Assembly: GCF_000018105.1 (NCBI RefSeq)
Contig: NC_009927.1
Span: forward strand, 90,001 to 122,000
DNA length: 32,000 bases
Direction of reading: 5' to 3'
From: Acaryochloris marina MBIC11017
GTDB taxonomy: Bacteria > Cyanobacteriota > Cyanobacteriia > Thermosynechococcales > Thermosynechococcaceae
The position numbers and the translations under genes are program-made. The notes beneath the pieces are model-generated. The model searched no databases and was not told the DNA's origin. It saw only the letters and a program-made list of their open reading frames with translations. Below, piece after piece: positions 3,347 through 29,590 of this stretch; position 1 is the stretch's first letter; the number at the start of each line of letters is the position of its first letter.

Positions 3347-3364
3347 AATGATTATCATTATCAT
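3347..3364. promoter_or_regulatory. Zur-box-like motif AATGATTATCATTATCAT upstream of zur
   Basis: Exact 18-mer shared with 4747..4764 and 29571..29588. The core AATGAT-T-ATCATT is a 6-1-6 palindrome. It lies 57-74 nt upstream of the zur ATG (3290). Confidence 0.7.
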
Positions 3365-3592
3365 TTCATAATAGCGGCTCTACTCGAGAAACCGTCAATA
3401 TTTCGCTCCAACCCTCACTTCTGGGAAGTCTCGTCAGTTAATGCTGTATCAAACATCTCGTAAGCGAGGCAACCCGTTGAGCTTTGCCCGTAATCTCTTT
3501 ACCGATTACGACGATAGAGTGCTGGGCTGGTGGGGTATGCAGGGGCATGGCGGACGTTGAGCAATCTAGAATCTTTTCAGTAGATACAGGAT

Positions 3593-4714
3593 TTAGCAGA
3601 TACAGTCGTTGTCGCAACAAGACAGGTCATCGAGAAACATGCCTTGCTGGCGGTAGATTTCTAGAGGTGCAGGGTCAAGGTCTAACCGACGTGCGATCGC
3701 ATCAGCCACTACCGCAAACCGCTGGCGAAATTTATAGATAAAGCAAAAAATAACATCGTGATGACGGACTGAGGGGCCAACCACAAATAGACCTGGCGTC
3801 AGCGTAGACTCATCTTGATCATTCAACATGGCATAACCCTCCGACCAATCGAACAGCGATGCAATCTGTTGCAAGCTGGTCTCAAAACCAGTACAGAGAA
3901 TCGGGGGATGAGCCGTCAGCCATTTATGGTATTCGCTGAAGACAGCATAGCCCTCTGACACTTTTTTGACTTCCTCAATGGAGACATTGCCAATCAGTTC
4001 GAGACGGCCCGTTTGAACGGCTAGCTTTACGCGCTGCACTGTATAGGGAGACAACGCAATACTCGGATCAGTATCCGGGTTGTCCCAAGCCCCAGTCCGA
4101 TCTAAAACCCTGACGCTCTTCCCTAAGGCGACTAGGTTGGTCGCGGCATCCATACCACTTTCATAGCCGCCGATGATCGTAAATTCATCCCCTGGTAAAT
4201 TTTTCCAAGAGCGAATCTGAGAATTGTGAATACAATGGTCTGCTCCCACAAATGGATTTAACCTTGGGTATTGGAATTCTCCAGCAGCCCAGATCACAAA
4301 CTGGGTTTTGATGTCTCCACCAGACGTCTTGAGGATAAAGCCACGACACTGAGAAAGGGGTTCAATATCCAAAACGTCTGTTTCTGTCTTCACAGGCAAC
4401 TGGAAGTGATTGGCCACCGTTTGCAAGTAGAGGGCATACTGCTGGCCATTGATATGTTCTCGGCGAAAGGCGACCGCTGGCGATGTTTTCAGGGTAATGG
4501 CATTGAGATCAAGTAGGCCAAAACCATGACTCGGAAACGAGGGGGTGATTAAGTTCATCTCTGCTGGCCAGCGACTAAAGGAGGCTCCGACCTGCTGCCG
4601 TTCCAACAGGATAAAGTTTTTCAGGCCCAGATCTTGAAGCGCGACCGCACAACCTACCCCGGCTGGCCCTGCCCCGACTATCACCACGTCATAGGAAGAA
4701 GTTGTCTCTTTCAT
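3593..4714 (-). CDS. FAD-dependent oxidoreductase (flavin monooxygenase / Pyr_redox-like) with a Cys-rich C-terminal tail
   Basis: I place the start at MKETTSSYDVVIVGAGPAGVG (ATG complement 4712..4714). The ORF-track start at 4798 would translate the Zur box. A second dinucleotide fold is FTIIGGYESGMDAA. The C-terminus is DDLSCCDNDCIC. Confidence 0.8.
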   Translation of the reverse strand: MKETTSSYDVVIVGAGPAGVGCAVALQDLGLKNFILLERQQVGASFSRWPAEMNLITPSFPSHGFGLLDLNAITLKTSPAVAFRREHINGQQYALYLQTVANHFQLPVKTETDVLDIEPLSQCRGFILKTSGGDIKTQFVIWAAGEFQYPRLNPFVGADHCIHNSQIRSWKNLPGDEFTIIGGYESGMDAATNLVALGKSVRVLDRTGAWDNPDTDPSIALSPYTVQRVKLAVQTGRLELIGNVSIEEVKKVSEGYAVFSEYHKWLTAHPPILCTGFETSLQQIASLFDWSEGYAMLNDQDESTLTPGLFVVGPSVRHHDVIFCFIYKFRQRFAVVADAIARRLDLDPAPLEIYRQQGMFLDDLSCCDNDCIC

Positions 4715-4744
4715 GGATAGACTTGCTGCCAGCAGGATTTTAAT

Positions 4745-4764
4745 ATAATGATTATCATTATCAT
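4745..4764. promoter_or_regulatory. Zur-box-like motif upstream of the flavoprotein gene
   Basis: ATAATGAT-T-ATCATTAT is an 8-1-8 palindrome (4745..4761) and contains the shared 18-mer (4747..4764). It lies 31-50 nt upstream of the ATG at 4714. Confidence 0.7.
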
Positions 4765-5100
4765 AATTTTTTAGAATCAGCCAACGCCCCCATCCCATCT
4801 GATACAGAACGGATAAGCATAAGCTGGTGGACTAAATTCTAGGGAAAGTCCATAGAGCCGAGATTTAGCATAGTAAATCTGTCACCATCAGTCAGATTGG
4901 GACTCTAAATGGGGCTGGACTAGCGCTTCATATCGCTGAGCAAGGATAAGGTTGATCGCTCAAACACCCTGTTAATGCAGGCGATCAGCAATTACAGAGA
5001 GCAAAAAATCCGCTATTCTTTTCTCAATAAAATCTTCTTGTTGCTAAAGCATCCATGTATAGTTAGACTTTCAATAAGCTTATGTTCTTGAGAAAAGACT

Positions 5101-5529
5101 ATGTACGACGCTAACTCGCTCAAAGCGGAACTGAACGATCGAGGTTGGCGCCTCACCCCTCAGCGGGAAACCATTCTTAATGTGTTTATAGACCTCGAAA
5201 AAGGCAAACATTTGAGTGCCGAAGATTTAGATACTCTCCTGCAAGAACAGGGTAAGCCCATTAGTTTATCGACCATTTATCGAACGGTGAAATTAATGGC
5301 TCGCATGGGGATTTTGCGAGAGTTAGAATTAGCTGAAGGTCATAAACACTATGAACTGAATCAGCCCTATCCCCACCATCATCACCATCTAATTTGTGTT
5401 AAATGCAATGAAACCATTGAGTTTAAAAGTGATGCTGTTCTGAAAATCGGTTCCAAGACAGCCAAGAAATTAGGATTTCATCTGTTAGATTGTCAATTAT
5501 CAATTCATGCCATCTGTCCTCAATGTTAG
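5101..5529 (+). CDS. fur: Ferric uptake regulator (cyanobacterial FurA type)
   Basis: 142 aa. SLKAELNDRGWRLTPQRETIL, ISLSTIYRTVKLMARMGILRELELAEGHKHYE, PHHHHHLICVKCNETIEF and HAICPQC closely resemble FurA of Anabaena/Synechocystis as I recall them. Confidence 0.9.
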   Translation: MYDANSLKAELNDRGWRLTPQRETILNVFIDLEKGKHLSAEDLDTLLQEQGKPISLSTIYRTVKLMARMGILRELELAEGHKHYELNQPYPHHHHHLICVKCNETIEFKSDAVLKIGSKTAKKLGFHLLDCQLSIHAICPQC

Positions 5530-5682
5530 CGGTCCTTACTACCCATCTGAATCAAGGGCTTGTCAATGGTGAATTAAGTCTGGGAAAAATTGCGAAAAGT
5601 TCTGGGCAAATCATTGGTAATGGGTCATCACTCTGCGATTGCAGGATATAAGATTAACGGGGTATCTAAACGCTTTTTGCCT

Positions 5683-6108
5683 TTATTCGGGGTGGCAGCG
5701 ATTGCAATATCCACCATACAGCGTGATCTCATAATGAGTGACCTGTAACCCAGGGCGAAGCGCCTTAAGATCTAAATCCTGAAGCTGATCCCAGGCAATA
5801 TCCTCAATCGCTCCACAAGACTGACATCGGAAGTGATGGTGAGGTTCGATATTGGCATCATAACGACAAACACCTTCTTCTAAGAGAACCTCTCGAACAA
5901 GCCCCACTTCGCGTAAGGCCTGGAGTGAGGAGTAGACCGTTGCCTGAGAAGAGGTAGGTCCATCTTGATTCAGATGATTCGTAATTTGCTCCGCAGTTGG
6001 GTGGTCTGAGCGAGCTAGTAAGTCTGCATAGACTGCAAAACGCTGGGGTGTGACTCGCAGGCCTTTCGCTTTTAAAGTTTGGATAATTTTATCTGCTTGT
6101 TGTTGCAT
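5683..6108 (-). CDS. Fur-family regulator, PerR-like
   Basis: 141 aa. LRVTPQRFAVY, ATVYSSLQALREVGLV, PHHHFRCQSCGAIEDI and C-terminal CNRC give two CxxC pairs. The PerR assignment rests only on the HHHF.C..CG context. Confidence 0.7.
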   Translation of the reverse strand: MQQQADKIIQTLKAKGLRVTPQRFAVYADLLARSDHPTAEQITNHLNQDGPTSSQATVYSSLQALREVGLVREVLLEEGVCRYDANIEPHHHFRCQSCGAIEDIAWDQLQDLDLKALRPGLQVTHYEITLYGGYCNRCHPE

Positions 6109-6541
6109 CTATAAGTACCTACAGAAAAGTGCTAGCCATCTCTAAGAAGGAACATCTGGGGTCAAAAAATAGCTATGTGAAGCCTAGTATCCATAACTGT
6201 AAGTATCCATATCTAAATATTAATCAAAAATCAAAGTAATAAATGCTACCTAATAACTTCTAGACAAGATTTATTCTGAGAAATGCCTGTGATAGAACAA
6301 CACGGCTTGGATCAAAAAATAAAAACTTTCCAATAAATTGCCGTTCTCAGGAAAGTTTTTGGAAATTTTCCAAGGATGCTTACTAGATATAGCTTTCAAC
6401 GATCACGTGGTACTTGGATGCAGATTCGCGATCTTTAAGCCTAAACGAGAGGGCTATCATGCTCCATCTACTGATTACTGGGCCAACGAATGGTTACAGA
6501 CAGTGACTTTTAGGCTGCTCCACGAAATTCAAAAGAATAAA

Positions 6542-6558
6542 ATGATACGATGTATCAT
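6542..6558. promoter_or_regulatory. 7-3-7 perfect inverted repeat ATGATAC-GAT-GTATCAT upstream of the COG0523 gene
   Basis: Seen directly. It lies 72-88 nt upstream of the ATG at 6630 and is flanked by AATGAT/ATCATT half sites. It is a Fur-family-like operator but differs from the 18-mer used at the other promoters. Confidence 0.45.
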
Positions 6559-6629
6559 ATCATTTGTTTTCAATATTCAATCAGTTGGCCAAACCAAAGA
6601 CGAACCATATTGAAATGTAATAGAAATCA

Positions 6630-7838
6630 ATGAGACATACAAACAAACTCCCCGTCACCGTACTTTCAGGTTTCCTTGGGGCCGGTAAAACCACCGTGCT
6701 GAGCCACATTCTGAACAACCGGGAAGGCAAGAAGGTCGCCGTAATTGTCAATGATATGAGTGAAATCAACATTGATTCGGCGATAGTACAAAGTGAAGTT
6801 TCTCTCAACCGCAGCGAGGAAAAGCTTGTTGAAATGAGTAATGGCTGCATTTGTTGCACCTTACGGGAAGATTTGCTTGAGGAAGTTAACAAGCTTGCAC
6901 GGGAGGGTCGCTTTGATTATTTAGTAATTGAATCCACTGGTATTTCTGAACCTTTACCTGTAGCTGAAACTTTTACCTTTACGGATGAAGATGGCGCTTC
7001 GCTTTCTGATGTTGCCGATCTAGACACAATGGTGACCGTGGTCGATGCAGTCAATTTTCTGGAGGACTATGAAAAGGCGCGATCCTTAAAGGATACGGGT
7101 GAATCTTTGGGTGAAGAAGATGAACGCAGTGTCGCCGATTTGCTGGTCGATCAAGTGGAGTTTGCCGACGTCATTCTCATAAGCAAAACCGACTTGGTGC
7201 TCCCTTCTGATATCGAGCGCTTAACAGCCATTCTTAAAACGCTGAATACGCACGCGAAAATAGTACCGATTGCTCAAGGCCAAGTTAATATTGATCATGT
7301 GCTTAGCACCGGATTATTCGATTTCGAGCGCGCACAACAAGCGGCTGGTTGGCTCAAGGAGATGCGAGGTGAGCATGTCCCTGAAACCGAAGAATACGGC
7401 ATAGGCAGTTTTAGCTACGTTGCGCGACGACCTTTCCATCCAGAAAAGTTTTACCAGTTTCTGTCCAGTAGAGACAAATACGGTAAGTTAATCCGTTCTA
7501 AAGGGTACTTCTGGCTAGCTTCGCGCCCTCAGTTTGCGGGTCACTGGAGTCAGGCTGGAGGCATAGCTCGCCACGGTGTCGCAGGGATGTTCTGGAAAGC
7601 CGTACCCAAGGAAAACTGGCCACAAGACGAAGAATATCTCGCCGCAATTAAAAAGCAATGGGTAGAGCCTTTTGGTGATATGCGTCAGGAACTAGTTTTT
7701 ATCGGCCAGGGTTTGGATAAAGAACGCATCACACAAGCGCTTGATGAATGTCTATTAAGCGAGGAAGAAATTGTGCGGGGCCACACTTATTGGAAATCAT
7801 TAAACGACCCATTTCCTGAGTGGGGTCACAGCGCATGA
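6630..7838 (+). CDS. COG0523 family GTPase (ZigA/YeiR-type putative zinc metallochaperone)
   Basis: 402 aa. P-loop GFLGAGKTT, metal-binding GCICCT motif, [10 protein letters not shown] switch and SKTDL. The long C-terminal CobW_C-like domain is typical of the roughly 400-aa ZigA class. Confidence 0.9.
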
Positions 7839-8086
7839 GTTCACTAATATGAATTACTCACTTTTAACAGATGTAATGAACTCAGAAGAACATGATGAAA
7901 GTGCCCACAGCGAAATATCTGCGAGCTAGTGCTTTAGCTGTAAAGGCCTTAAAGATTGACTTGTGTAATGGCCCTATTTATTGAAGTTCCCCGGAGTAAA
8001 AAAGCGATGTGCTGTGGGCAACAGAAATCAAGCAGAGCATGGTGACGTTGGCCTCTACTAAAAATGCAATTTCGTTGAGATAAAGA

Positions 8087-8572
8087 ATGGATGCTATTCA
8101 ACGGGTTATCGATCACGCAGAGCGACGCTGTAAAGAAAACGGCTCGCGTTTCACTAAAAAAAGAAAACTAGCGCTATCACTGTTACTTAAATCGGGCAAA
8201 GCACTCTCTGCTTATGAGTTAGTGGAGGCTTATAAAACTGAATTGGGTGACACCATGCCTGCCATGTCTATGTATCGAATTTTAGAGTTTTTAATGGCAG
8301 AGAACTTGGTGCATCGCCTTGATCTGATCAATAAGTATGTCGCTTGCGAACACATAAAGTGCGAACACGAACATGCTCAGACGCAATTTTTAATCTGCGG
8401 TCAGTGCCAAAAAGTTAAGGAAGTCGCGATAAGCGCACCAATTATGGATTTGCTAAAGAAAAACACTAGCGATGCAGGCTTTCATCTTGCGAGTCCACAA
8501 TTAGAAATAAACTGTATATGCCAAGATTGTATGTCAACAGAATTGAGAGCCTACAGTGTGGGGAGGTATTGA
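8087..8572 (+). CDS. Fur-family regulator resembling gammaproteobacterial (E. coli-type) Zur
   Basis: 161 aa. The layout AERRC..NG.R.T..R...L.LL....ALSAYEL...P..SMYRILEFL.AENLVHR...YVACEH...LICGQCQKVKEV...GFHL...CICQDC parallels E. coli Zur as I recall it (AEKIC..RNVRLTPQR, AISAYDL, TVYRALDFLLEQGFVHK, FICDRCGAVKEE, GLCAAC). Confidence 0.75.
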   Translation: MDAIQRVIDHAERRCKENGSRFTKKRKLALSLLLKSGKALSAYELVEAYKTELGDTMPAMSMYRILEFLMAENLVHRLDLINKYVACEHIKCEHEHAQTQFLICGQCQKVKEVAISAPIMDLLKKNTSDAGFHLASPQLEINCICQDCMSTELRAYSVGRY

Positions 8573-8743
8573 TTTTCATGGGAGCTACATGTCGATAATT
8601 ATTACCGAAAGGATATTTGTCGTGTTGGCAGGTGACGGCTGAGTAAGTCTGCATTAGCCTTGAGTTTTCGCATAACCTAAAGCATTCGTGGATACACGGT
8701 TTTTTAGCTTCACATTTAGTTAAATTTATAGCGTTTTTATCTC

Positions 8744-10771
8744 ATGGGGAATGACTTATCCAAGCGAGATTTGCTCGTTAGAAACAACTTTTCTCCTTCA
8801 AACGAAAAACTTATTAAGAGTGGTTATGTAGATCAAACACGCTTGCGTGAGGCGATTTATGAGAGTCGGCGGAAAGGTCGCTCTCTGTTGGCGATTCTCC
8901 AAAAAATGACGGGGAAGCCCCTCCCACCTCGGTTGCTTCGGCAGATCAAGCGTCAGCAACTCTTTGAGTTAAAAATCCTCTATGGCCTAGAGTGTCTGGA
9001 TCCTGAGCTTACTCAAGTTGACTTCGATGAAATTGATCGGCTGATTCGCACCGTTATTCCCCTCGACTACTGCCGTCGCTATCAGTTGTTACCACTTTCA
9101 CTCAATGAAGAAGAGGATCCGCCAGTTGTTCGGATCGGTATGGTCAATCCCGATCACCTCAGCGCCATTGATGATATTGGCTACTTATTGCGCTCCAATG
9201 GCATGACCTTCCAACGGGTCGTCCTGGATTTGGATACTTACCAAATGTTGATCGCCAAGTTTTTGGACGCTCAAGCCAAACGCCAAGCCACGATCCAAGA
9301 GAATTTGCCCGTTGAGTATGGGCTGGAAGATGATCTCGATCGCTTAGGCGGCATTGAAGATCTGGCCACCAATGATGCCGACACCAACTTAGATGAAGCA
9401 CTGCTAGACGAAAATGCAGCACCCATCATTTCTTTGGTCAATAAGATTTTAGCGAAGGCCTTGCAGAACCAGATTTCAGATATTCATATTGAACCGCAAG
9501 AAGAAAACCTGCGAGTTCGCTTTCGGAAAGACGGCCTCCTCCATAACGCCTTCCAACCTCTTCCACGGCGAATTACGCCTGCCCTGGTCTCTCGATTTAA
9601 AATCATTGCCAATTTAGATATTGCGGAACGGCGTCTGCCCCAGGATGGACGTATTCTTCGACTGTTTCAAGGACGTAAAGTTGACTTTCGTGTCAGCACC
9701 TTGCCGAGTCGCTATGGCGAGAAAGTGGTGTTGCGGATCTTAGACAACTCTTCCATGCAGCTGGGTCTCGACAATTTGATTGATGACCCAATGAGCCTGG
9801 AGTTGGTGAGGTCCATGGTCGATCGTCCTTTTGGTCTAATTTTAGTCACGGGTCCAACGGGTTCTGGTAAAACGACCACTTTGTATTCGGCTTTGACGGA
9901 ACGGAATACCCCCGAAGTTAATATCTGTACCGTTGAAGATCCGATTGAATATACGTTGCCAGGGATTACCCAGGTGCAGGTGCTGCGAGAAAAAGGCATG
10001 GACTTTGCCTCGATCCTGCGAGCCTTTCTGCGGCAAGACCCTGATGTCCTACTCGTGGGTGAGACACGGGACAAGGAAACCGCCAAAACTGCTATTGAAG
10101 CCGCGCTCACGGGGCACTTGGTGTTAACCACTTTGCACACGAATGATGCGGCTAGTGCCATTGTCCGCTTGGCTGAGATGGACGTAGAACCCTTTATGGT
10201 CTCCGCCTCCTTGCTAGGAGTCGTCGCTCAGCGACTGGTGCGACGTCTCTGTCCCGATTGCCGTATTCCCTATCGACCGTCCCAGGAGAGACTGGCGCAG
10301 TTTGGATTAGTGACGTCTGGGAAGACTGACATTACTTTCTATAAAGCCAATACATCTACCTCTGATGATATTCTGGCGACGGCTAACACTGAAGATGCCT
10401 GTCCCACCTGTTCAGGCATTGGCTACTTGGGGCGGTGCGGGGTCTATGAGGTGATGCAGGTGAGCGAAAAACTCAAGGCACTCATCACGGAAGGAGCCCC
10501 AACCGAGCACATTAAAGAAGTGGCCGTCGAAGAAGGAATGCAAACCCTATTGGCCTATAGCTTAAAGCTGGTTGAGAATGGTGAAACCTCTCTAGAGGAA
10601 GTTGAACGGGTCACTTTCTCAGATAGCGGCTTGAAAACAGAATTAAAGGCCAAACGCAAGACAGCCCTCAACTGCCACGTCTGTAATGCCGCGCTGTTAC
10701 CAGAGTGGTTGGATTGTCCCTACTGCCTCACCCCCCGATTTACTGAGCAGCATCCTGTGAATCAGCATTAA
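8744..10771 (+). CDS. pilB: Type IV pilus assembly ATPase PilB (GspE family)
   Basis: 675 aa. Walker A GPTGSGKTT, Asp box, Walker B LLVGETRD, His box TGHLVLTTLHTN, tetracysteine CPDC...CPTC, and T2SSE_N-like N-terminal region. Confidence 0.9.
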   Translation: MGNDLSKRDLLVRNNFSPSNEKLIKSGYVDQTRLREAIYESRRKGRSLLAILQKMTGKPLPPRLLRQIKRQQLFELKILYGLECLDPELTQVDFDEIDRLIRTVIPLDYCRRYQLLPLSLNEEEDPPVVRIGMVNPDHLSAIDDIGYLLRSNGMTFQRVVLDLDTYQMLIAKFLDAQAKRQATIQENLPVEYGLEDDLDRLGGIEDLATNDADTNLDEALLDENAAPIISLVNKILAKALQNQISDIHIEPQEENLRVRFRKDGLLHNAFQPLPRRITPALVSRFKIIANLDIAERRLPQDGRILRLFQGRKVDFRVSTLPSRYGEKVVLRILDNSSMQLGLDNLIDDPMSLELVRSMVDRPFGLILVTGPTGSGKTTTLYSALTERNTPEVNICTVEDPIEYTLPGITQVQVLREKGMDFASILRAFLRQDPDVLLVGETRDKETAKTAIEAALTGHLVLTTLHTNDAASAIVRLAEMDVEPFMVSASLLGVVAQRLVRRLCPDCRIPYRPSQERLAQFGLVTSGKTDITFYKANTSTSDDILATANTEDACPTCSGIGYLGRCGVYEVMQVSEKLKALITEGAPTEHIKEVAVEEGMQTLLAYSLKLVENGETSLEEVERVTFSDSGLKTELKAKRKTALNCHVCNAALLPEWLDCPYCLTPRFTEQHPVNQH

Positions 10772-11140
10772 GCCAGCCCGAGTTGCAGCCGCCTATATCA
10801 AGTTATGAACTGTGAGTTTGACCCATTTGCAATTTCTAACGGAACGCTCTCCACCAGGTATGGGTGGAGTTGCCCGCAGTACAGGGCGAATTGTAGCGTC
10901 TTTCCCATGTTGGAGGGACTGCCTCAGGTGTCTCCTTTTCATAACGGTTGGAGACACTATCTCTTTCTAGCTGGTTCTTTAGAAATTGAAGAAATCAGTG
11001 TCAATCCCATGCCTCTATAGCGTAGGGTGGTTCTTTTATAGCGATCCAATTTAATTCGTGAAAATATTTTGGAGTGAATCTACTGGTTAGCAAGGATTTG
11101 AGCCTCAGTATACTTAGAACAAATCAAACCAGATTGCTAT

Positions 11141-11461
11141 ATGTTAGAACTGACCACAATCAAGCAAACAGCCCTCGATTATCTCTTGTCCCATCTGGAA
11201 GTATTTCCAGAACATTGTCAATTGTTTGAGGTCGTTGGTGCAACTTGTTTTGATAATCACGAGTGGATGATCAACATTAGTGTAGTCGGTTTAGTTGGTA
11301 AATATTGGAATGTCTTTGTTGATGGCAACACGGGAAAAATTTCACAAGACTGCGAGTTTTATACAGATTGCCCAGACTTGAATAAGCCCCATCAATATGC
11401 CCATCTGCCAGACTATTTAAATCAACTGCTCGATCGCCAGACTGCAAAAGTTTCTAAGTAA
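11141..11461 (+). CDS. Hypothetical protein
   Basis: 106-aa ORF just upstream of priA with no recognised motif. NVFVDGNTGKI is faintly PepSY-like. Confidence 0.4.
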   Translation: MLELTTIKQTALDYLLSHLEVFPEHCQLFEVVGATCFDNHEWMINISVVGLVGKYWNVFVDGNTGKISQDCEFYTDCPDLNKPHQYAHLPDYLNQLLDRQTAKVSK

Positions 11462-11497
11462 ATGAAACACAAACAATAATCTCCTGGGTGCGCCAAT

Positions 11498-15425: not shown

Positions 15426-15593
15426 TTATGAACTGCATCGACAACCCGTATGTCCACAACCCGAGCCTGAGGGATGTCCATCTGCACAGGCTTGGCCACA
15501 AAAATACTGACCGCCTTTTTGAATCGCATCACTAATCGTCACGATGCAAAGACAAGACTCGCAAGCACATTTCATTTGAGTAACGGTTGCCAT
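15426..15593 (-). CDS. smtA: SmtA/BmtA-type bacterial metallothionein (55 aa; below the ORF-track size cutoff)
   Basis: Manual translation: MATVTQMKCACESCLCIVTISDAIQKGGQYFCGQACADGHPSGSGCGHTGCRCSS. It matches the SmtA pattern KCACE.CLC....AI...G.Y.C..ACADGH..GS.GCGHTGC.C. Confidence 0.85.
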   Translation of the reverse strand: MATVTQMKCACESCLCIVTISDAIQKGGQYFCGQACADGHPSGSGCGHTGCRCSS

Positions 15594-15746: not shown

Positions 15747-16118
15747 ATGTCGCACTCTCACCTTGATATCAGCACTCATTCCTTGTCGGAGAAACCCCGG
15801 TCAGAGAAGCCGGTGGTCGATCAAATTTTGTCTTTTGAAAAGGCACAGCGGATGGCTGAATTTTTAGGCGTATTGAGCGACCCTAATCGTTGGAGAATCT
15901 TATCGGCTCTTGCCATTGAAGAAATGCGGGTGGGAGAGTTAGCGGCAGCAGTTGAGATGTCAGAATCAGCCGTGTCCCATCAACTGAGAGTCCTCAGGAA
16001 TACACGAATGGTTCGCCGCCGTAAATGTGGACGAACCGTGATTTACGGATTAAAAGACCACCATATTTTTAATCTTTACCGAGATGTCTCAGAACATTTG
16101 GACGAGGCGGACTATTGA
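15747..16118 (+). CDS. smtB: ArsR/SmtB family metal-sensing repressor
   Basis: 123 aa. LSDPNRWRIL, ESAVSHQLRVLRN HTH and the alpha5-type ligand pattern LKDHHIFNLYRDVSEHLDE resemble SmtB ([20 protein letters not shown]). Divergent from smtA. Confidence 0.85.
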   Translation: MSHSHLDISTHSLSEKPRSEKPVVDQILSFEKAQRMAEFLGVLSDPNRWRILSALAIEEMRVGELAAAVEMSESAVSHQLRVLRNTRMVRRRKCGRTVIYGLKDHHIFNLYRDVSEHLDEADY

Positions 16119-21211: not shown

Positions 21212-21249
21212 GGCTTTCTACCAAGAATGGTCGTTCTTGGTAGAAAGCC
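21212..21249. other. Perfect 16-bp stem / 6-nt loop hairpin
   Basis: GGCTTTCTACCAAGAA-tggtcg-TTCTTGGTAGAAAGCC, with every pair checked by hand. It lies in the leader between the riboswitch core and the metE relic. No U-tract follows on either strand. Confidence 0.6.
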
Positions 21250-21374
21250 ACTTAATTTCTGGTCCCTTATCATCACCAAAGCTATGTAGTGATGCTCCAA
21301 TGACAATGCAACCGTGACTTAATTAAAGCTAAATCATTCATCATCTATACCTCGCAGATGTTGTGAAAGTGAGT

Positions 21375-21492
21375 AATCACTCGGCGGGCGTTCTGACTCT
21401 GAGGACAAAGCCTCATCACAGCTGCGGGACAGCGCCGGATTTACACCGGACTTTCCCCGTTTCCTCTAACGACTGTTCCCCGTTAGAACCGA
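21375..21492 (-). promoter_or_regulatory. Cobalamin (B12) riboswitch aptamer
   Basis: The reverse strand reads GGUUCUAACGGGGAACAGUCGUUAGAGGAAACGGGGAAAGUCCGGUGUAAAUCCGGCGCUGUCCCGCAGCUGUGAUGAGG...CCUCAGAGUCAGAACGCCCGCCGAG. The GGUG.AAAUCC...GCUGUCCCGCA.CUGU core and the B12-box-like AGUCAGAA.GCCCGCC are recognisable. Confidence 0.8.
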
Positions 21493-21895
21493 ATTTATAA
21501 AATTGTTTCTGAATCCTACCACAAGAATCAAGTTCTAAGGTTGGATAATTATTGAGTCAAAAATACCATTTCTAAGTCTGCTTTAAAGGGTAGGTCATCC
21601 TCAAGATTTAGCCCTGTCAAAGTCTTTCAAGTTTGACAAACTGTCTTTTGACGCCCTTTCAAGATTTCATCAGAATGATCGCTTAAGCCTCTAGTAAAGA
21701 ATAAAAATCTGCTTTGAAAGTCCATCAATGCTCTTTTACCTTTCAAACATCTCTTTGTTGGATCAGCATGGGTCTGACTATGTTGATAGGGACTAATCCT
21801 TACCACGCTGAGAGTGGCAATACTCGCAACACATACTTAGGTAAGCCAGAAGTTACTCACATGCCTGCACCCTTACCCACTGCCTTTGTATAGCT

Positions 21896-22654
21896 TCATA
21901 ATGAAACAGATTGACCTGAAACAGTTATAACCAAATCCAAGTACAGTTCTTGATCGGTCTGTCGCAGCCATTTAATTGATTTGATTTGGCCATTGTAAGG
22001 GGACCGCACAATCCCCTTTGTATTCAGTTTGTTTTCTATTGTGTGGATCTCGGCTATCAACTTAGCTTTCTGCGTTGATTGATTGTGCCGAACTCTATTT
22101 TGTTGCTTAGCTTTTGTGAGCTTAGCAATCGCAAGGGTCAGCTTTCCTTTTGCTTCTTGATACTTCCCTTCCAATTTCCCAAGCTCAGTCTTCTCTGATA
22201 GCGGCAACACCCGGCGGGCGTAGTCAGTCCAGGGAGAGTCTGCATAGAAATTTGAGATCGCATCTCTTGCCTGCTCCACTCTTAATCGAGCTAGTTTCAC
22301 TTCGACCTGCTCTACTGCAAAATCGGGGACAACTGTGAAAGTTTGGGTTTGCAAGTGCTGCAGCTGCTGCCGCAGACTCTCACGTTCTTGCACAAGACTG
22401 GTCCTGATTAGGGAACGCTCACTCACTATCTGCCCCTTTGTCACTACCTCATTCACCTTCACCTTAAGGTCATTTGGATGATCTAAGGTTAGCTGTAGTT
22501 TCAATCGCCAAGGCATCTGTCGTTGTTGAGGCGAGGGGCGGGGCGTAGTCGTCTTTGCCACCTCCGTTCTAGGCTCGATGTTCTCAACCTTGACCGGAGT
22601 CTGAGCACACCCGACCAGCAGCAACGCTATCGTAACCCCCGCTCTCGCTTCCAT
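21896..22654 (-). CDS. Coiled-coil lipoprotein with membrane-fusion (HlyD-like) lipoyl-type segments
   Basis: I place the start at MEARAGVTIALLLVGCAQ, which carries an LVGC lipobox. It continues with KVKVNEVVTKGQIV, a long coiled coil and IVRSPYNGQIKSI. The longer ORF-track start (22723) overlaps the neighbouring gene. Confidence 0.6.
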   Translation of the reverse strand: MEARAGVTIALLLVGCAQTPVKVENIEPRTEVAKTTTPRPSPQQRQMPWRLKLQLTLDHPNDLKVKVNEVVTKGQIVSERSLIRTSLVQERESLRQQLQHLQTQTFTVVPDFAVEQVEVKLARLRVEQARDAISNFYADSPWTDYARRVLPLSEKTELGKLEGKYQEAKGKLTLAIAKLTKAKQQNRVRHNQSTQKAKLIAEIHTIENKLNTKGIVRSPYNGQIKSIKWLRQTDQELYLDLVITVSGQSVSL

Positions 22655-22708
22655 TTGGCAATCAACTTTCTGACCTTTACTAAAAATACAATTGCGGTGA
22701 GATAAAGA

Positions 22709-23166
22709 ATGGATGCTATTCAACGGGTTATTGATCGCGCAGAGCGGCGCTGTAAAGAAAATAGCTCGCGTTTAACTAAAAAAAGAAAACTAGCGCTATC
22801 ACTGTTACTTAAATCGGGCAAAGCACTCTCTGCTTATGAATTAGTGGAGACTTATAAAACTGCATTGGGTGACACCATGCCTGCCATGTCTATGTATCGA
22901 ATTTTAGAGTTTTTAATGGCAGAGAACTTAGTGCATCGCCTTGATCTGATCAATAAGTATGTTGCTTGCGAACATATTAAGTGCGAGCACGCGCATGCTC
23001 AGACGCAATTTTTAATCTGCGGTCAGTGCCAAAAAGTTAAGGAAGTCACGATAAGCGCATCAATTATGGATGTGCTAAAGAAAAACACTAGCGATGCAGG
23101 CTTCCCCTTGCGAGCCCACAATTAGAAATGAACTGTATATGCGAGGATTGTATGTCAACAGGATAG
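22709..23166 (+). pseudogene. Second copy of the E. coli-type Zur-like gene, frameshifted before the C-terminal CxxC
   Basis: It shows 9 aa substitutions over the first ~131 aa relative to 8087..8572. Where copy 1 has TTTCATCTT this copy has TTCCCCTT, one base fewer, which gives GFPLRAHN*. The shifted frame still reads ASPQLEMNCICEDCMSTG*. Confidence 0.7.
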
Positions 23167-23229
23167 AAAGCTTACAGTGTGTTGTCAGTGTCCCAGTTTG
23201 TCGTTGTGCATGTCGAGTTTGTTGCTGAT

Positions 23230-24720
23230 TTAGTGCCGATGCCAACGGGTAGCTCCATCTGGTTGATCAACCACTGTAATCCCCGCTGCCGATAGTTGAG
23301 CGCGAATATCATCTGCAGTTATAAAGTCTCGCTGTTTTCGGGCTGTTTGTCGCTGCTGAATTAGATCAGTTATTACAGCCTCATCTAATTTGCCAGTTGC
23401 TTCATCCGTATCACTGTTGACTTTAGCTTCTAAACCCAATACCTGGGCCAGATACAATAATGTTTGCCACTGCTGCCAGAGCAGCTCCGGACTGGACTGG
23501 GACTTGCCTTCATGTACCAGACGGTTCCCCTCTCTCTGCAGCGCTTTGGCAAGTTCAAACAGCACTGCCAGAGCCCCCGATGTGTTCAGATCATCATCCA
23601 TTGCGGATTGAAACCGTTTGGTCCATGGGTCTTCTGAACTGGGTTCCTGAGGTGAAGACTGGATGCTAGCAAATGGCGACGACAATGCTACTCGGTGACG
23701 GTTGCCAAAGAGAATTCCGGCTTTTAACGTCTGCCAACTATTGATCGAAGCCACGATCGCATCTTTTGTAAAATCAAGCGGTTTCCTATAGTGCCCCTGC
23801 AACACAAACAGTCGCACCGCCATTGGATCTACCGGCTCCGGATAGTCTGCCCAACCTCCATCTAGCAGGTCACGAATCGTGGTGAAATTGCCTAGGGATT
23901 TCGACATTTTTTCCCCATTCACCGTTACCATCCCATTGTGCAGCCAGTAGCGAGCGAGCGGCTGTCCGGTCAGCACTTCTGATTGAGCAATCTCGTTTTC
24001 ATGGTGAGGAAACACTAGATCACCACCACCTCCATGAATGTCAATGGTTTCGCCCAATCGCGCCCGGATCATGGCCGAGCATTCGATGTGCCAACCGGGT
24101 CTTCCTAGTCCCCAGGGCGATTCCCAGGCAGGTTCACCAGGTTTTGCAGATTTCCACAAGGCAAAATCAAACGGATCGCGCTTCTTCTGGTCTTGAGTAT
24201 CATCGGCAACTCGTCCTCCTGCACCTACCTTCAGTTGCTCAAGCTTACGACCAGAGAGCTTTCCATACTCCGAAAATTGCCGCACGCTATAGTAAACATC
24301 GCCATCGATCGCATAAGCGTAGCCTTGCTGTTCTAGTGCCTGGATCAATTGATGAATTGCAGGAATGTGCTCTGTCACACGGGGATAGTCATCAGCATCT
24401 AGAATATTGAGTCGGCGAATATCACGAAAATAGGCATTAATATAGCGATCGCTCACCTCCTGCATCGTTATGCCCTCTACTATGGCGCGATGGAGAATCT
24501 TGTCGTCAATATCTGTAAAATTCTGCACATAGCGCACTGTGTATCCACACCACTTTAAATAGCGCCGCAGCACATCCCAAGCCATGTACGAACGAGCATG
24601 CCCTAAATGACAATTGTCATATACCGTCACGCCACAGCAATACATCACCACTCGTTCTGGGTGAACGGAGATAAATGGCTCTTTTTGATTGGTGAGAGTG
24701 TTGTGAAGAGTAAGGTTCAT
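23230..24720 (-). CDS. cysS: Cysteine--tRNA ligase
   Basis: 496 aa. [20 protein letters not shown] (HIGH), KMSKSLGN (KMSKS), HIECSAM and FPHHENE, which correspond to the positions of the E. coli Zn ligands C28/C209/H234/E238. Confidence 0.92.
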
Positions 24721-24790
24721 GCAAAATACTTTTAACTAAAAACACTGATAGGGGCGCAATAGGGAATCTGGTCAGACCCAGTGCTATGAG

Positions 24791-24802
24791 AATGATTATC
24801 AT
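24791..24802. promoter_or_regulatory. Zur-box core AATGATTATCAT in the cysS promoter region
   Basis: The first 12 nt of the shared 18-mer. It lies 71-82 nt upstream of the cysS ATG, just downstream of a TAGTAT -10-like hexamer on the cysS strand (complement 24805..24810). Confidence 0.5.
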
Positions 24803-25124
24803 CCATACTAACGGACCTATCTTCATTTCTTTAGTCATCACAACTGTATAGAACCTATTTGAAATCTTTTATGAAGTAACCAACTCTCTGAAGCCTTGCT
24901 GGGAAGGTGCGGAAAAATTTGGCTATGGCCTAAATTTAAGGCTCGTTGAAATTCTCGTTAAAGTGGCTGCAATCGCAGAAATCGAAATCATACAGGAGGA
25001 ACATTTCAGGGGAGTGACATTAAGCCCTTAGATTACCTTGATCGCTCCTGACACTGATATCTGGTTTTGATCCAAGCCAAGAATTGCTATATTGAGAACA
25101 TATTGGAACAAAGCTTTTCTCATA

Positions 25125-25187
25125 GTGAAAACAGCACTCGTCCTTACTAGCACTACCACAACAACTACCCACATAGGAGGGTTGTAA
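25125..25187 (+). CDS. Putative Thr-rich leader peptide 1 (GTG start; MKTALVLTSTTTTTTHIGGL)
   Basis: Hand-checked codons are ACT AGC ACT ACC ACA ACA ACT ACC CAC ATA GGA GGG TTG TAA. Thr makes up 8 of 20 residues, six of them consecutive. The start codon is uncertain; an in-frame TTG lies at 25092. Confidence 0.55.
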   Translation: MKTALVLTSTTTTTTHIGGL

Positions 25188-25220
25188 GGCGCTGCGCTGA
25201 AATTGGTCTTACTACTTTAG

Positions 25221-25257
25221 TTGCCCTCCAGACGAACTCTGGGGGGCAATGTTTTTT
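25221..25257 (+). terminator. Intrinsic terminator 1
   Basis: TTGCCCTCCAG-acgaact-CTGGGGGGCAA forms an 11-bp stem with one G-U pair, followed by TGTTTTTT. Confidence 0.75.
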
Positions 25258-25286
25258 CACCACCTGTATTCAGAAGGTCAAAAGGA

Positions 25287-25364
25287 ATGCCCATTTTGCT
25301 GACAATGTCTCTTGCAATGAACACTGCTACCGCCACCACTACTATCACGCCTGGAGGGACGTGA
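25287..25364 (+). CDS. Putative Thr-rich leader peptide 2 (MPILLTMSLAMNTATATTTITPGGT)
   Basis: AAGGAA lies just before the ATG at 25287, and in-frame alternative ATGs are at 25305 and 25317. Codons are ...ACT GCT ACC GCC ACC ACT ACT ATC ACG CCT GGA GGG ACG TGA. Thr makes up 7 of the last 13 residues. Confidence 0.55.
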   Translation: MPILLTMSLAMNTATATTTITPGGT

Positions 25365-25392
25365 CGATTGATTGCACATGCAACTCATCTGT

Positions 25393-25421
25393 CCCTCCAA
25401 GCATAGTTTGGAGGGTTTTTT
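25393..25421 (+). terminator. Intrinsic terminator 2
   Basis: CCCTCCAA-gcatagt-TTGGAGGG forms an 8-bp stem followed by TTTTTT. It ends 36 nt before the thrS ATG. Confidence 0.7.
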
Positions 25422-25456
25422 ATTACCTCATTACTCAGACAACAGGAGAGACTAAA

Positions 25457-26680
25457 ATGGCGGACCACCGTGAACTTGCAAGGGATATGGACTTGTTTCA
25501 CTTTGAAGAGCATAGTCCAGGAATGGTGTTTTGGCACCCACAGGGACTGCGGCTTTTTCGCAGCATTGAAGACTTCATGCGGCAAGTTTATCAAGGGCAT
25601 GGATTTGAAGAAGTGCGATCGCCCATAGCACTTAATAGATCGCTATGGGAGCGCTCAAGGCATTGGGAAAAATTTCGTCAGGGAATGTTTGTTGTTGGCA
25701 GCGTAGAGGCAGATATAGACGATGAATCAGCCCTATCCGTCATCAGCCCTGACTATGCGTTGAAGCCCATGTCATGCCCTGCCCATATTGCTATTTATCA
25801 GTCCCGCAAGCGCAGCTATCGGGAAAATCCCATGCGATTGATGGAGTTTGGCATCTGTCATCGCAACGAACTGTCTGGCACATTATCGGGGTGTATGCGG
25901 CTGCGGCAATTTGTCCAGGATGATGCTCATATCTTCTGCCGAGCATCTGATGTGCAGCGTGAAATTAGCAATTTCCTCAATATGGTGCAGCAGGTTTATG
26001 TTGCTTTTGGCTATGACCAATTTTCCCTACAAATATCACTTAGACCAGAGCAACGGCTTGGCTCAGATCATCTCTGGGATCAGGCTGAGTCTGTGTTAGT
26101 TAAAGCGGTTCAATCTTTGGGGCATAGTTATAAATTAGCTCCAAATGAAGGGGCATTCTATGGCCCCAAGCTCGAAATTAGTTTGCAAGATCAGTTGGGG
26201 AGATCGTGGCAGTGTGGCACAATTCAAGTCGATTTCAATCTGCCTCAAGTGTTTGAGCTAGCTTTTGTAAATGAATTGGGAGAATTGGAGCGTCCCGTCA
26301 TGCTGCACCAGGCGATTTTGGGGTCGCTAGAGCGCTGGATTGGCATTTTGTTAGAGCATCACAGCGGTGCCCTCCCCATTTGGGCTGCTCCTACACAAGT
26401 CGCAGTCGCCTCTATTTCTAATAAAGCATCTGCCTGGGCAGAAACAATTTTCTTTCGACTCAGGCAACTGGGGGCTAGGGTAGAACTTCACAACCAAAAC
26501 CGCACAATCAGCAAGAAAATTCGTGGACTCTCTAAACGCAAAATTCCATTGATTGCCATTGTGGGTGAGCAGGAAGCCATGAGTCAAAGGTTAAATCTTC
26601 GGTGTTTAGGGGCTCTAAAACAACAAGAAATGAGCCTAGCTGAACTTGAGCAAAAGTTAGCTGATCTTTCTATGCCGTAG
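25457..26680 (+). CDS. thrS: Threonine--tRNA ligase paralogue lacking the N-terminal TGS/editing domains (T2-like)
   Basis: 407 aa starting MADHRELARDMDLFHFEEHSPGMVFWHPQG, which aligns with the start of the E. coli ThrRS catalytic core ([26 protein letters not shown]). AGGAG lies 7 nt upstream. Zn-ligand contexts MSCPAH, QDDAHIFC and HQAILGS are retained, and the anticodon-binding domain is present. Confidence 0.9.
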   Translation: MADHRELARDMDLFHFEEHSPGMVFWHPQGLRLFRSIEDFMRQVYQGHGFEEVRSPIALNRSLWERSRHWEKFRQGMFVVGSVEADIDDESALSVISPDYALKPMSCPAHIAIYQSRKRSYRENPMRLMEFGICHRNELSGTLSGCMRLRQFVQDDAHIFCRASDVQREISNFLNMVQQVYVAFGYDQFSLQISLRPEQRLGSDHLWDQAESVLVKAVQSLGHSYKLAPNEGAFYGPKLEISLQDQLGRSWQCGTIQVDFNLPQVFELAFVNELGELERPVMLHQAILGSLERWIGILLEHHSGALPIWAAPTQVAVASISNKASAWAETIFFRLRQLGARVELHNQNRTISKKIRGLSKRKIPLIAIVGEQEAMSQRLNLRCLGALKQQEMSLAELEQKLADLSMP

Positions 26681-26880
26681 CGAGTTTTTTCCCAGAAGTT
26701 GAAGATGTACGCTCGCAGGCTAAATCTACGGCGGAGCAGACGGATGGGAGAACTTGGTGGGGGGCCAAGATGATCTGCTGCTGCTTACCTTCACCATTAT
26801 CGGTGTTTTCATCACGTCGTTCAACACCTTCAAATAAGAAGCAATGAGTTGATGCCGCATCGACACCAAGCCAAGAATTG

Positions 26881-26911
26881 GCTGAAACAGCCAATTCTTG
26901 GTCACGAGAAG
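26881..26911. other. Perfect 14-bp stem / 3-nt loop hairpin
   Basis: CCAAGAATTGGCTG-aaa-CAGCCAATTCTTGG, about 200 nt downstream of the thrS stop, with no U-tract. It shares the CCAAGAA...TTCTTGG ends with the hairpin at 21212. Confidence 0.55.
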
Positions 26912-27168
26912 TATGACTTGCCCAATTGCCCAGCGTTTAAGTGGACAGACTCCCTACTAAACACTTTTCCCTTCAAAAAGAAAGTTCACTTGAATTTAAT
27001 TTTGGGAAGGCTAAAGGTAGGACAGCAGTTCTGTACCTTTTTCCGAATGAAATCCTAGTCAAATTAAATAGCTTTTTCTATTAATCTCACAGCTTAAATC
27101 AGGTTCTTCCCTTTTCAATAAAACTGGAAGATTAAAAGGTTCCCACGATTCCCAATCAGGAGCTGCAT

Positions 27169-28101
27169 GTGCCTCAGCCCAAGGACCAACTCCCCAAAAT
27201 TCGGATTGGTGAGCTTCTTCTCCAGAAGGGATATCTTAATCCGACACAACTGAGACAAGCCTTAAACCTCCAACGTGGGAGTAAGCAGAAACTGGGAGAA
27301 GTTTTAATTCAGCAAGGTCTGATTAGTCAGGATCAACTCCAGCAAGGCCTAATCGAGCAACGATGGCGAAACTTGGTCACGTCAGTATTATTCTCGGTTA
27401 GTACGTTTGCGCCCAATCTACCGCAACTAACCTCTAGCGTAGAGACGCAAACAACCCTGGTGCAGAGCATGCGTAAACCTACCATAGAACTCATTGTTGA
27501 TGACGACATTAAAAGGGTTCACGCCAAGAAAGGGTATGGAGGAATTTCTACCCAGTCAGGACCTTCTAATACCAGAACGTTGTTTGCTTCTGCCACTCCT
27601 CTCCCTCAAAAGCCGACTGTAGATGATCCCTTGAGAGGTTTTTGTCATCCATTGAATGGTGAGGGGTGGTTAAGCCAGGGAATTCGGGGCAGAACCCACC
27701 AAGGTCGGATGGAGTATGCCTATGATCTAGCAATAAAGATTGGCACTCCCATCTATGCCATGAGGGCTGGTAAAGTGCTCGCACTAAGGGATAAATACCC
27801 TGATACGGGCGGTGGGAAAGAAAATGCAACTCGCTCTAATTTCATTTGGCTTGAGCATGAAGATGGATATCGGTCTATCTATGTCCACCTGCAGCAAGGC
27901 TTTAAGTCAAAAGTGAATCTCAAAGCCGGAGATTTTGTCGAAAAAGGTCAACTCATTGGTTACAGTGGGAACTCCGGTTGGAGTACCGGCCCTCACTTAC
28001 ATATTGAAGTGCAGAAACCGAGTCCTAGAAAACGGTTTACGAACTCAGTCCCTTTCGCTATTTCAGGTACCTGTAAAGATACCCCAATCGCTGACCAATA
28101 G
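27169..28101 (+). CDS. M23 (LytM-type) metallopeptidase with an N-terminal MshEN-like tandem motif
   Basis: GTG start as given in the ORF track. The N-terminus reads RIGELLLQKGYLNPTQLRQALNLQ-RGSKQ-KLGEVLIQQGLISQDQLQQGLIEQ. The C-terminus has THQGRMEYAYDLAIKIGTPIYAMRAGKV and GNSGWSTGPHLHIEV, the H...D and HxH M23 motifs. Confidence 0.8.
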   Translation: MPQPKDQLPKIRIGELLLQKGYLNPTQLRQALNLQRGSKQKLGEVLIQQGLISQDQLQQGLIEQRWRNLVTSVLFSVSTFAPNLPQLTSSVETQTTLVQSMRKPTIELIVDDDIKRVHAKKGYGGISTQSGPSNTRTLFASATPLPQKPTVDDPLRGFCHPLNGEGWLSQGIRGRTHQGRMEYAYDLAIKIGTPIYAMRAGKVLALRDKYPDTGGGKENATRSNFIWLEHEDGYRSIYVHLQQGFKSKVNLKAGDFVEKGQLIGYSGNSGWSTGPHLHIEVQKPSPRKRFTNSVPFAISGTCKDTPIADQ

Positions 28102-28191
28102 CTTAAATTACCTCTGTCTCTGCCGGAGGCTTATTATGGTTCACCCCTCAAGGGGGCAGGGGAATAACCCCCAAGGGGCAACTCTCTAACA

Positions 28192-28335
28192 TCAACATAA
28201 AGGCAGGTTCAGCTGCTCCAAGCGAGCATTTTCTAGCTCCTGATTGCGAATATATCCTTGAACCACCGCTTCATCCAAACCCACTACCGAAACATAGTAA
28301 CCTCGCGCCCAAAAGCTCTCTCCTGAATAAGTTCG
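28192..28335 (-). mobile_element. Relic of an IS200/IS605-type TnpA (C-terminal ~47 codons only)
   Basis: The reverse strand reads RTYSGESFWARGYYVSVVGLDEAVVQGYIRNQELENARLEQLNLPLC*. W.RGY.V..VG.....V..YI.NQE is the usual TnpA (Y1) C-terminus. There is no start codon or N-terminal part. GC-rich mini-hairpins lie nearby at 28143..28178. Confidence 0.5.
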
Positions 28336-29526
28336 TCACTGAAACTCTAATTCGTCGATTCGTTGGAGAAGAATATAAACTTCTTTACCCGGATGTAAAA
28401 CGATGGCTTGCTGTCCTTGGAACCAAAGATCTTGAACAATAAAGTATCTGCCACGTCGTCCCAGAATCTGATAAACCTTATATCTTTCCGGTTCAGCAAT
28501 GACAATCTGCTCACCAACTTGAATCATTGGAAATTCTTTTGGGGGAACAGCGCCCATCGGTAAATTCATTACCCAGTTGTGCCAACACCTCCAGCTTTCT
28601 CGAACTCCAAAAGGCACAGTTATATAGTCTTCATGCTCCCCTGTATCCTTGGCTAGTCGCCTTATAAATTCGTTGAACTCAGGAAGCGCATGCAACTCTA
28701 AAGGCATGAAGTGTTTATCTGTGGGGATACGGAACACATACCAATCCCCTGACTTCCGGTGGTCATTGATCTCTTGCCAATAGAGGTCTGTGAATACAGG
28801 AGCATCGCTTCCAGGATTCCGGTATTCAGTGCAGAATTGTTCTGCAAGTTCTTGGGTAATGAAGCTGTTCTTCTTATCTCTCATGAGAGAGTGTTGAGCA
28901 ACTTCCCTGGCGTCCATGTCAATGAGTCTTATTAGTTGAGCCTCATGCGTTTCGGCTATCTGACTATAGTTGATTTGCTCATGAACACCCGGCTCTAAAA
29001 GCGGAACCTCATACGGTTCATTCAACGATGGATCATAGCAAGGATCGTTGTTATCAAACTGGGGCTCAATCTCTTCCTGGCTTAATCGACAATTGATTCG
29101 GTGTTGATGAAGCACCATCTCCCATACCGTTAAACGACCAGATGGAATGGCTGAATCATAAGCCGATGAATACATAGCATTGTGTTGATTTTGCATATGC
29201 TCGATCACTGTCTCAATATCCCCTTGGGTCAGGGTTCCCTCAGCTTCAGTGGGTTCATCAATGTGGTGTAGCGCCGGATAATAACCAATCAATTGACCGT
29301 TATCGATCACGTTGAAGTTGATACCCATCCGGCTTGCTTCATTGATCCGATGAACCAACTCATTTATGTGATGGAGAATGCGATCTTCTGCATTCTCCAT
29401 GGCTTGGCGTAACCCCTCATCCATTGGCATCCGATAGAGCTGGTTCTGGTGGGCCATGGCCATCACATGGGCGAAGCCGCTGCAGTTGTTTGGAGGAAGT
29501 AGGTGCTGGCAAAGTCGAAGAAGCAA
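28336..29526 (-). CDS. Hypothetical His/Asp/Glu-rich protein, function unknown
   Basis: 396-aa ORF with alternative starts at M22/M24 (around 29463). It has no transmembrane segment or signal peptide and no motif I recognise. Several His pairs are present (LHHINELVH, ALHHIDEP, HMQNQH, LHQH). Divergent from folE across the 27-nt palindrome. Confidence 0.6.
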   Translation of the reverse strand: MLLRLCQHLLPPNNCSGFAHVMAMAHQNQLYRMPMDEGLRQAMENAEDRILHHINELVHRINEASRMGINFNVIDNGQLIGYYPALHHIDEPTEAEGTLTQGDIETVIEHMQNQHNAMYSSAYDSAIPSGRLTVWEMVLHQHRINCRLSQEEIEPQFDNNDPCYDPSLNEPYEVPLLEPGVHEQINYSQIAETHEAQLIRLIDMDAREVAQHSLMRDKKNSFITQELAEQFCTEYRNPGSDAPVFTDLYWQEINDHRKSGDWYVFRIPTDKHFMPLELHALPEFNEFIRRLAKDTGEHEDYITVPFGVRESWRCWHNWVMNLPMGAVPPKEFPMIQVGEQIVIAEPERYKVYQILGRRGRYFIVQDLWFQGQQAIVLHPGKEVYILLQRIDELEFQ

Positions 29527-29563
29527 TAGACATAAAGGTTTGAAGGGGTAGATAAAAGGTTGC

Positions 29564-29590
29564 CAATGATAATGATTATCATTATCATTG
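29564..29590. promoter_or_regulatory. 27-nt perfect palindrome, Zur-box-like (CAATGATAATGAT-T-ATCATTATCATTG)
   Basis: All 13 symmetric pairs were checked by hand. It contains the shared 18-mer (29571..29588) and TGATAATGATTATCA. It lies 38 nt from the longest start of the 396-aa ORF and 81 nt from the folE ATG. Confidence 0.75.

Follow-up and report, generated by a model that had tools for sequence, protein, structure and literature searches.

Predicted operators for the zinc repressor Zur on a 356-kb plasmid of the cyanobacterium Acaryochloris marina

Which protein reads a short palindromic motif that recurs on a plasmid of Acaryochloris marina, and which genes does it control? The 32,000-nucleotide (nt) stretch that raises this question, called the window below and numbered from its first letter as position 1, is located on a 356-kb plasmid, which we take to be pREB2, one of pREB1-9 of strain MBIC11017; the genome comprises a 6.5-Mb chromosome and nine smaller contigs (374,161, 356,087, 273,121 bp and further). 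The 18-mer AATGATTATCATTATCAT, read on the plus strand, occurs in three exact copies at 3347-3364, 4747-4764 and 29571-29588, the same positions that were given in an earlier note on this DNA. That note also held the copies to be beyond chance, and dinucleotide shuffles bear this out, as 10 matches with up to three mismatches were observed against 0.06 expected. The sequence flanking the three copies shows no relationship between them, and thus they are not a single duplicated segment. The 12-nt core that had been placed ahead of cysS is present at 24791-24802 and is part of a longer element, TGAGAATGATTATCA at 24787-24801, which is a 7-1-7 box of the form TGATAAT-N-ATTATCA with one mismatch.

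Each of the three 18-mer sites consists of two overlapping 7-1-7 boxes offset by 6 nt, the site ahead of cysS2 is a single box, and the best box at all four sites departs from TGATAAT-N-ATTATCA at zero or one of 14 positions. Operator 1 (3343-3364), ahead of a zur paralogue, contains the boxes TCAGAATGATTATCA at 3343-3357 (two mismatches) and TGATTATCATTATCA at 3349-3363 (one mismatch); operator 2 (4743-4764), ahead of a flavoprotein gene, contains boxes at 4743-4757 (two mismatches) and 4749-4763 (one mismatch). Operator 3 (29564-29590), with folE on one side and an orphan open reading frame (ORF) on the other, contains boxes at 29567-29581 (perfect) and 29573-29587 (one mismatch), and operator 4 is the single box at 24787-24801. 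Palindromes ranging from 6-1-6 to 13-1-13 had been claimed for the four sites. This holds for the 18-mer sites, where the perfect palindromes are 6-1-6 at 3347-3359, 8-1-8 at 4745-4761 and 13-1-13 at 29564-29590, but the cysS2 site has only 5-1-5 (24792-24802), which is below the lower bound of that range. The long palindromes are centred between two 7-1-7 boxes 6 nt apart, an arrangement known from the classical 19-bp Fur-type box.

The distance from box to start codon is 62 to 80 nt for zur (ATG at 3284), 32 to 50 nt for the flavoprotein, 67 to 81 nt for cysS2 and 83 to 100 nt for folE. On the minus strand, operator 2 overlaps the -10 element of the promoter-like sequence TTGGCT-16-GATAAT, and the palindrome of operator 3 encloses -10 hexamers of promoter-like sequences reading in either direction. 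The annotation was taken from a 99.9%-identical stretch of plasmid pREC1 of A. marina MBIC10699 (RefSeq), in which the flavoprotein starts at 4714 (373 amino acids [aa]), folE at 29671 (210 aa) and the unknown protein of the orphan ORF at 29400 (354 aa). The sister-plasmid starts are all downstream of the boxes, which confirms the start codons as corrected earlier and the advice to drop the reading frames and extensions that run through them; a 74-aa ORF that crosses the cysS2 box overlaps the cysS2 start and is spurious.

By comparing the window boxes with published operators, we found that they are near-identical to the Zur-binding sites of Anabaena. The Anabaena Zur operator was reported as a 7-1-7 palindrome (PMC3323870); the known sites include TGATAATCATTATCA at alr3242 and the overlapping pair TGATTATGATAATCA and TGATAATCATTATCG at all3515, whose fragment bound Zur in an electrophoretic mobility shift assay (EMSA), and the EMSA probe of all4725 contains TGATAACCATTATCA (PMC10957091). 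The proposal that the motif is of the type read by Anabaena FurB agrees with these published sites. Judged from their sequence, the four window sites are very probably operators of the cyanobacterial type of Zur, a Fur-family repressor that senses zinc. This assignment is strongly supported by the sequence match, by the clustering of sites genome-wide and by their conservation across genomes, and we infer from it that Zur binding and a zinc response take place in A. marina.

In the whole genome, the 7-1-7 box was matched exactly at eight places against 0.1 expected, and with one mismatch at 16 places against 2.8 expected. The strong sites cluster in three islands, on the chromosome (3.04-3.10 Mb), the window plasmid (73-129 kb) and a 173-kb plasmid (68-73 kb), and the window accounts for 4 of the approximately 20 to 25 operator loci, so that the regulon is not the local one that had been described. 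The genes beside strong sites include thrS2, divergent from folE2, as well as hemB2 (of the Asp-rich, zinc-independent type), several COG0523 GTPases, a TonB-dependent receptor and a porin. A perfect box is also found at chromosomal position 3040741 with the orthologue (53% identity) of Synechococcus PCC 7002 G0132, a gene derepressed in a zur mutant (PMC4628125). The targets had been called partly unexpected, a view that we do not share, because folE, thrS and cysS paralogues are classical members of Zur regulons and the flavoprotein is Zur-boxed across cyanobacteria. Because there are three paralogous islands, and the zur, flavoprotein and folE genes of the window are 72 to 88% identical to chromosomal copies, the window is a paralogous plasmid copy, partly decayed, of the chromosomal zinc-starvation island of A. 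marina.

The sites are also kept in other genomes. Four other Acaryochloris genomes retain the operator 1 box ahead of the orthologous zur paralogue. The operator 2 block does not vary among five genomes, four from this genus and one from a second, in spite of diverging flanks. Among flavoprotein orthologues at loci from named cyanobacteria, 65 of 79 carry a box with up to two mismatches in the 250 nt upstream, in most cases at -30 to -52, against a background rate of 0.034 per 260 nt, and the few non-cyanobacterial orthologues scanned showed no box. The cysS2 gene (23230-24720, minus strand) encodes a paralogous cysteinyl-tRNA synthetase (CysRS) of 496 aa, which is 57% identical to the chromosomal CysRS and 66 to 74% identical to the product of the second cysS of a minority of cyanobacteria. 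In this Zur-linked clade, all members examined are directly behind a box or within a box-headed operon, often just upstream of the flavoprotein gene; no site better than three mismatches was present at 26 housekeeping cysS loci. CysRS paralogues were predicted earlier as Zur targets in proteobacteria (PMC2770081).

The zur paralogue ahead of which operator 1 lies (2889-3284, minus strand) encodes a protein of 131 to 133 aa, here called Zur2. As the earlier note had it, this protein is Zur-like: it matches PF01475 (E 6e-24), its best PDB match is Synechococcus Zur (SynZur, 7NE9; E 7e-29), followed by the Zur proteins of M. tuberculosis and S. coelicolor, and it is of the cyanobacterial type, with both CxxC pairs of the structural Cys4 site. 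At the SynZur sensory positions D77/H79/C95/H115 it has H/H/C/H, and a His instead of D77 is found in 11% of cyanobacterial Zurs (PMC9337993). The protein is one of three paralogues, 84 to 88% identical, with a box ahead of each. A canonical Zur with a DRHH motif, 51% identical to the 133-aa protein, is encoded on the chromosome at 3196420-3196797, and no Zur box within four mismatches was found in 600 nt covering the last ~100 nt of this gene and ~500 nt upstream. Acaryochloris genomes commonly have both Zur2 and canonical Zur, and among 40 genomes searched the three-copy Zur2 group was found in Acaryochloris and one related genus and in no other. The 133-aa protein is consequently not the single orthologous zinc sensor of the cell, and the claim that it is the regulator needs narrowing: it is a cyanobacterial-type Zur but not the sole candidate binder, as the canonical Zur and the other paralogues exist. 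The recognition helix GLATVYRAL is identical in Zur2, canonical A. marina Zur and SynZur, from which we infer that all these Zur types are able to bind the window boxes; most likely, canonical chromosomal Zur and all three Zur-boxed paralogues do so.

The paralogue on the 173-kb plasmid (71546-71944 of that plasmid) ends two codons earlier than the window-plasmid copy and has Gly at the Cys95 position (NGPVH), and this copy may be zinc-blind or decaying. It is conceivable, if rather doubtful, that Zur2 acts as a Zur-repressed second-tier sensor and not as a housekeeping one, its His77-altered site giving a different zinc set point and the Gly95 copy being zinc-blind. If this were true, Zur2 would be switched on only once canonical Zur lets go, which would make the response graded or rapidly resetting.

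Under zinc-sufficient conditions, zinc-loaded Zur dimers would bind the 7-1-7 repeat; at the 18-mer sites, where the boxes overlap with a 6-nt offset, two dimers would probably bind opposite faces of the DNA. The operators are predicted to overlap the promoters, so that bound Zur would block RNA polymerase. When zinc is short, Zur would lose its sensory zinc and leave the DNA, allowing transcription of the zur paralogue, the Cys-tailed flavoprotein, the spare CysRS, the spare GTP cyclohydrolase I and the divergent orphan ORF. Promoter occlusion followed by derepression is the established Zur mechanism and fits every feature seen, and by analogy it would also operate in A. marina.

Several observations weigh against the Zur assignment. 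In other phyla, TGATAATNATTATCA serves as the classical Fur (iron) box, and for Bacillus and proteobacteria it is the 7-1-7 Fur box of the textbooks, so that the binding protein has to be named from context. Four further Fur-family proteins are encoded in the window, of which two are proteobacterial-type Zurs (one of them frameshifted), one is FurA-like and one PerR-like. At operators 1 and 4, no promoter was picked up by a simple scan. Additionally, the plasmid island is decaying, with the FeoB-like gene deleted, thrS2 broken and another Fur gene frameshifted, so that part of the operators may act on genes that have lost their importance. The boxes could accordingly be read as iron-responsive FurA boxes, bound by the FurA-like protein encoded at 5101-5529, whose gene is divergent from the flavoprotein, at a distance of 337 nt from operator 2; in Anabaena, Zur and FurA are reported to engage in cross-talk. 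However, the Anabaena FurA consensus, AAATAAATTCTCAATAAAT, differs (PMC4005646), whereas the same sequences as in the window are documented as Zur sites in Anabaena (PMC10957091). The neighbouring genes are mostly zinc-enzyme paralogues and COG0523 chaperones, the only iron-related one being a Dps-like gene ~270 nt from a one-mismatch site, and we regard an iron response as very unlikely. The proteobacterial-type Zur of 161 aa (8087-8572) lies within the same island and is a genuine Zur homologue, with Xanthomonas Zur 7DH7 and E. coli Zur 4MTD as its best PDB matches; its second copy (22709-23125) has a frameshift after residue 134, leaving the last 25 residues in another frame. That this protein binds the boxes is nevertheless highly improbable, because it is found only on the two plasmids while many cyanobacteria and the A. 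marina chromosome retain the boxes, E. coli-type Zur boxes were matched in the window at chance level only, and zigA, which stands beside it, has a different palindrome, TGATACGATGTATCA.

The presence of a box at each Zur2 gene and its absence at canonical zur, together with the His that replaces Asp77 at the Zur2 sensory site, would also suit a separate and self-contained regulon in which only the Zur2 paralogues bind and canonical Zur recognises something else. We consider this unlikely, since identical boxes stand at the same gene families in single-Zur cyanobacteria, including Anabaena with its shown binding, and since both A. marina types share their recognition helix with SynZur. The exact identity of 18 nt at three places, in a genome rich in duplications and insertion sequences, might finally suggest copies of a short repeat or mobile sequence with no regulatory role. 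Given that the flanks are unrelated, that the palindrome is of the protein-binding type and always upstream of start codons, and that orthologous promoters of different genera and families keep the motif amid diverging flanks, the chance of this is negligible. Control by Zur remains the reading that we prefer, and the genes behind the four operators are described below on that basis.

The flavoprotein (3593-4714, minus strand) is a CzcO/YpdA-like member of Pyr_redox_3 with the C-terminal tail FLDDLSCCxNDCxC, which is invariant across 120 homologues, and a similar CCxxxCxC ending is seen in the Staphylococcus aureus structure 3D1C. An equation of this protein with the FAD oxidoreductase G0132 of PCC 7002 was rejected, as the two have no similarity. 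In 48 of 65 loci the next gene encodes a FeoB-like protein, composed of a small GTPase, two Gate domains and a membrane part with cysteine-rich motifs. On the A. marina chromosome and the 173-kb plasmid, the FeoB-like gene lies between the flavoprotein gene and zur; in the window, a permease remnant consisting of its first ~105 nt is found at 3427-3532 (minus strand), and ~1.67 kb have been cleanly deleted, with the junction at 3427-3435. Our literature search found no study of the flavoprotein/FeoB-like pair and nothing on the flavoprotein family as a Zur target. The pair is a promising candidate for a so far unrecognised system that takes up or mobilises zinc during starvation. Between operator 2 and the flavoprotein start codon there is also a small palindrome or hairpin at 4722-4736, CTTGCTGCCAGCAGG on the plus strand, whose core (TGCTGGCAGCA in the mRNA sense) is invariant across five genomes and which could be a 5' untranslated region structure or a second operator.

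The folE paralogue (29671-30303, plus strand) encodes a GTP cyclohydrolase I that is 72% identical to that of the Zur-boxed chromosomal folE2. Its promoter region, operator 3 included, is 84% identical to the divergent region between thrS2 and folE2 on the chromosome. On the thrS2 side, homology covers the start codon and the first ~30 codons, with an 11-nt deletion, and stops at 29453; the window's strongest operator would thus drive folE on one side and the orphan ORF on the other. The frameshifted 5' remnant of thrS2 is fused to this ORF (28336-29534, minus strand), which encodes 354 aa from 29400 in RefSeq and at the longest 396 aa from 29526. A word-indexed search with the ORF matched only itself, and a full HMMER search gave three matches, all fragments or weak, its relatives being near-identical fragments only; its AlphaFold model has a mean pLDDT of 33 and no confident fold. 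The orphan ORF has replaced thrS2 behind the former thrS2 promoter. The unknown protein that the note had listed as a target is indeed divergent from folE at operator 3, but as a target it is an orphan ORF where thrS2 used to stand. Downstream of folE and on its strand (30303-32000 and beyond), the sister plasmid is annotated with a 114-aa ORF, an M23 metallopeptidase gene, dacB and a dihydroorotase (pyrC) paralogue. The genes from folE to the dihydroorotase may form a single Zur-controlled operon of zinc-enzyme spares.

Upstream of cysS2, at 25361-26680, lies a thrS paralogue without an editing domain. The possibility that the cysS2 box also serves this gene, 560 nt away, was rejected because the thrS paralogue has its own leader region. 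This paralogue is 86% identical to a flavoprotein-adjacent gene (6581-7621) in a Xenococcaceae genome, against only ~40% identity to the thrS genes of A. marina itself, a pattern suggestive of horizontal transfer. Elsewhere in the window, the palindrome TGATACGATGTATCA, a unique 7-1-7 sequence at 6543-6557, stands ahead of zigA (COG0523, 6630-7838), which is followed by the proteobacterial-type Zur gene; it occurs exactly at only two sites in the genome, this one and position 66596 of the 173-kb plasmid, and it is probably the operator of the foreign proteobacterial-type Zur. A cobalamin riboswitch (Rfam RF00174, 63.8 bits; 21366-21508, minus strand) precedes a 94-aa metE relic, orf154, a DUF1636 gene and cobW, and this unit is B12-controlled and without a Zur box. 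At ~15426-15593 (minus strand), a gene for a 55-aa metallothionein is divergent from that of an ArsR/SmtB regulator (15747-16118; sister-plasmid annotation), and the pair is a zinc-excess module within the zinc-starvation island.

The system resembles that of Anabaena/Nostoc PCC 7120 Zur (FurB, All2473) in its 7-1-7 operator, its overlapping double sites (as at all3515) and, as predicted at operators 2 and 3, the overlap of operator and promoter, and A. marina shares with Anabaena the targets thrS2, folE2, hemB2, the COG0523 chaperones and the TonB-dependent receptor operon. Unlike Anabaena, A. marina has, in addition to a canonical zur without a box, three further zur paralogues that are Zur-boxed, and its regulon exists in three copies, one on the chromosome and two on plasmids; neither cysS2 nor the Cys-tailed flavoprotein is listed as an Anabaena Zur target in the papers compared. 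Plasmid-borne zinc-sparing paralogues are likewise known from the pAQ7 cluster of PCC 7002 (hemB-II, folE-II, G0131 and G0132), a set whose repression is lifted by TPEN and by mutation of zur (PMC4628125), although the pAQ7 oxidoreductase G0132 corresponds to another boxed A. marina gene and not to one of the window. The predictions of Haas et al. in 2009 (PMC2770081) also placed spare CysRS and threonyl-tRNA synthetases, with zinc ligands kept, behind Zur sites by COG0523 genes; these cover beta- and gamma-proteobacteria, whereas here a distinct cyanobacterial cysS2 clade is box-linked. SynZur of Synechococcus sp. WH8102 (7NE9; PMC9337993) has the same sensory positions, Cys4 site and recognition helix as the 133-aa protein, which differs from it in having His for Asp77, a Zur-boxed gene of its own and three copies.

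As the predicted regulation is textbook Zur repression, its main value lies in correct annotation. Zur repression is of a known kind, and the points to follow are the flavoprotein/FeoB-like pair, which is unstudied, and the zur paralogues that carry Zur boxes. The distinct cysS2 clade would join thrS2 as a zinc-starvation aminoacyl-tRNA synthetase of cyanobacteria, and in the window a plasmid copy of the regulon is decaying while its operators remain intact. Meanwhile, the Zur-boxed zur paralogues beside an unboxed canonical zur offer a natural system for how duplicated metal sensors divide their work.

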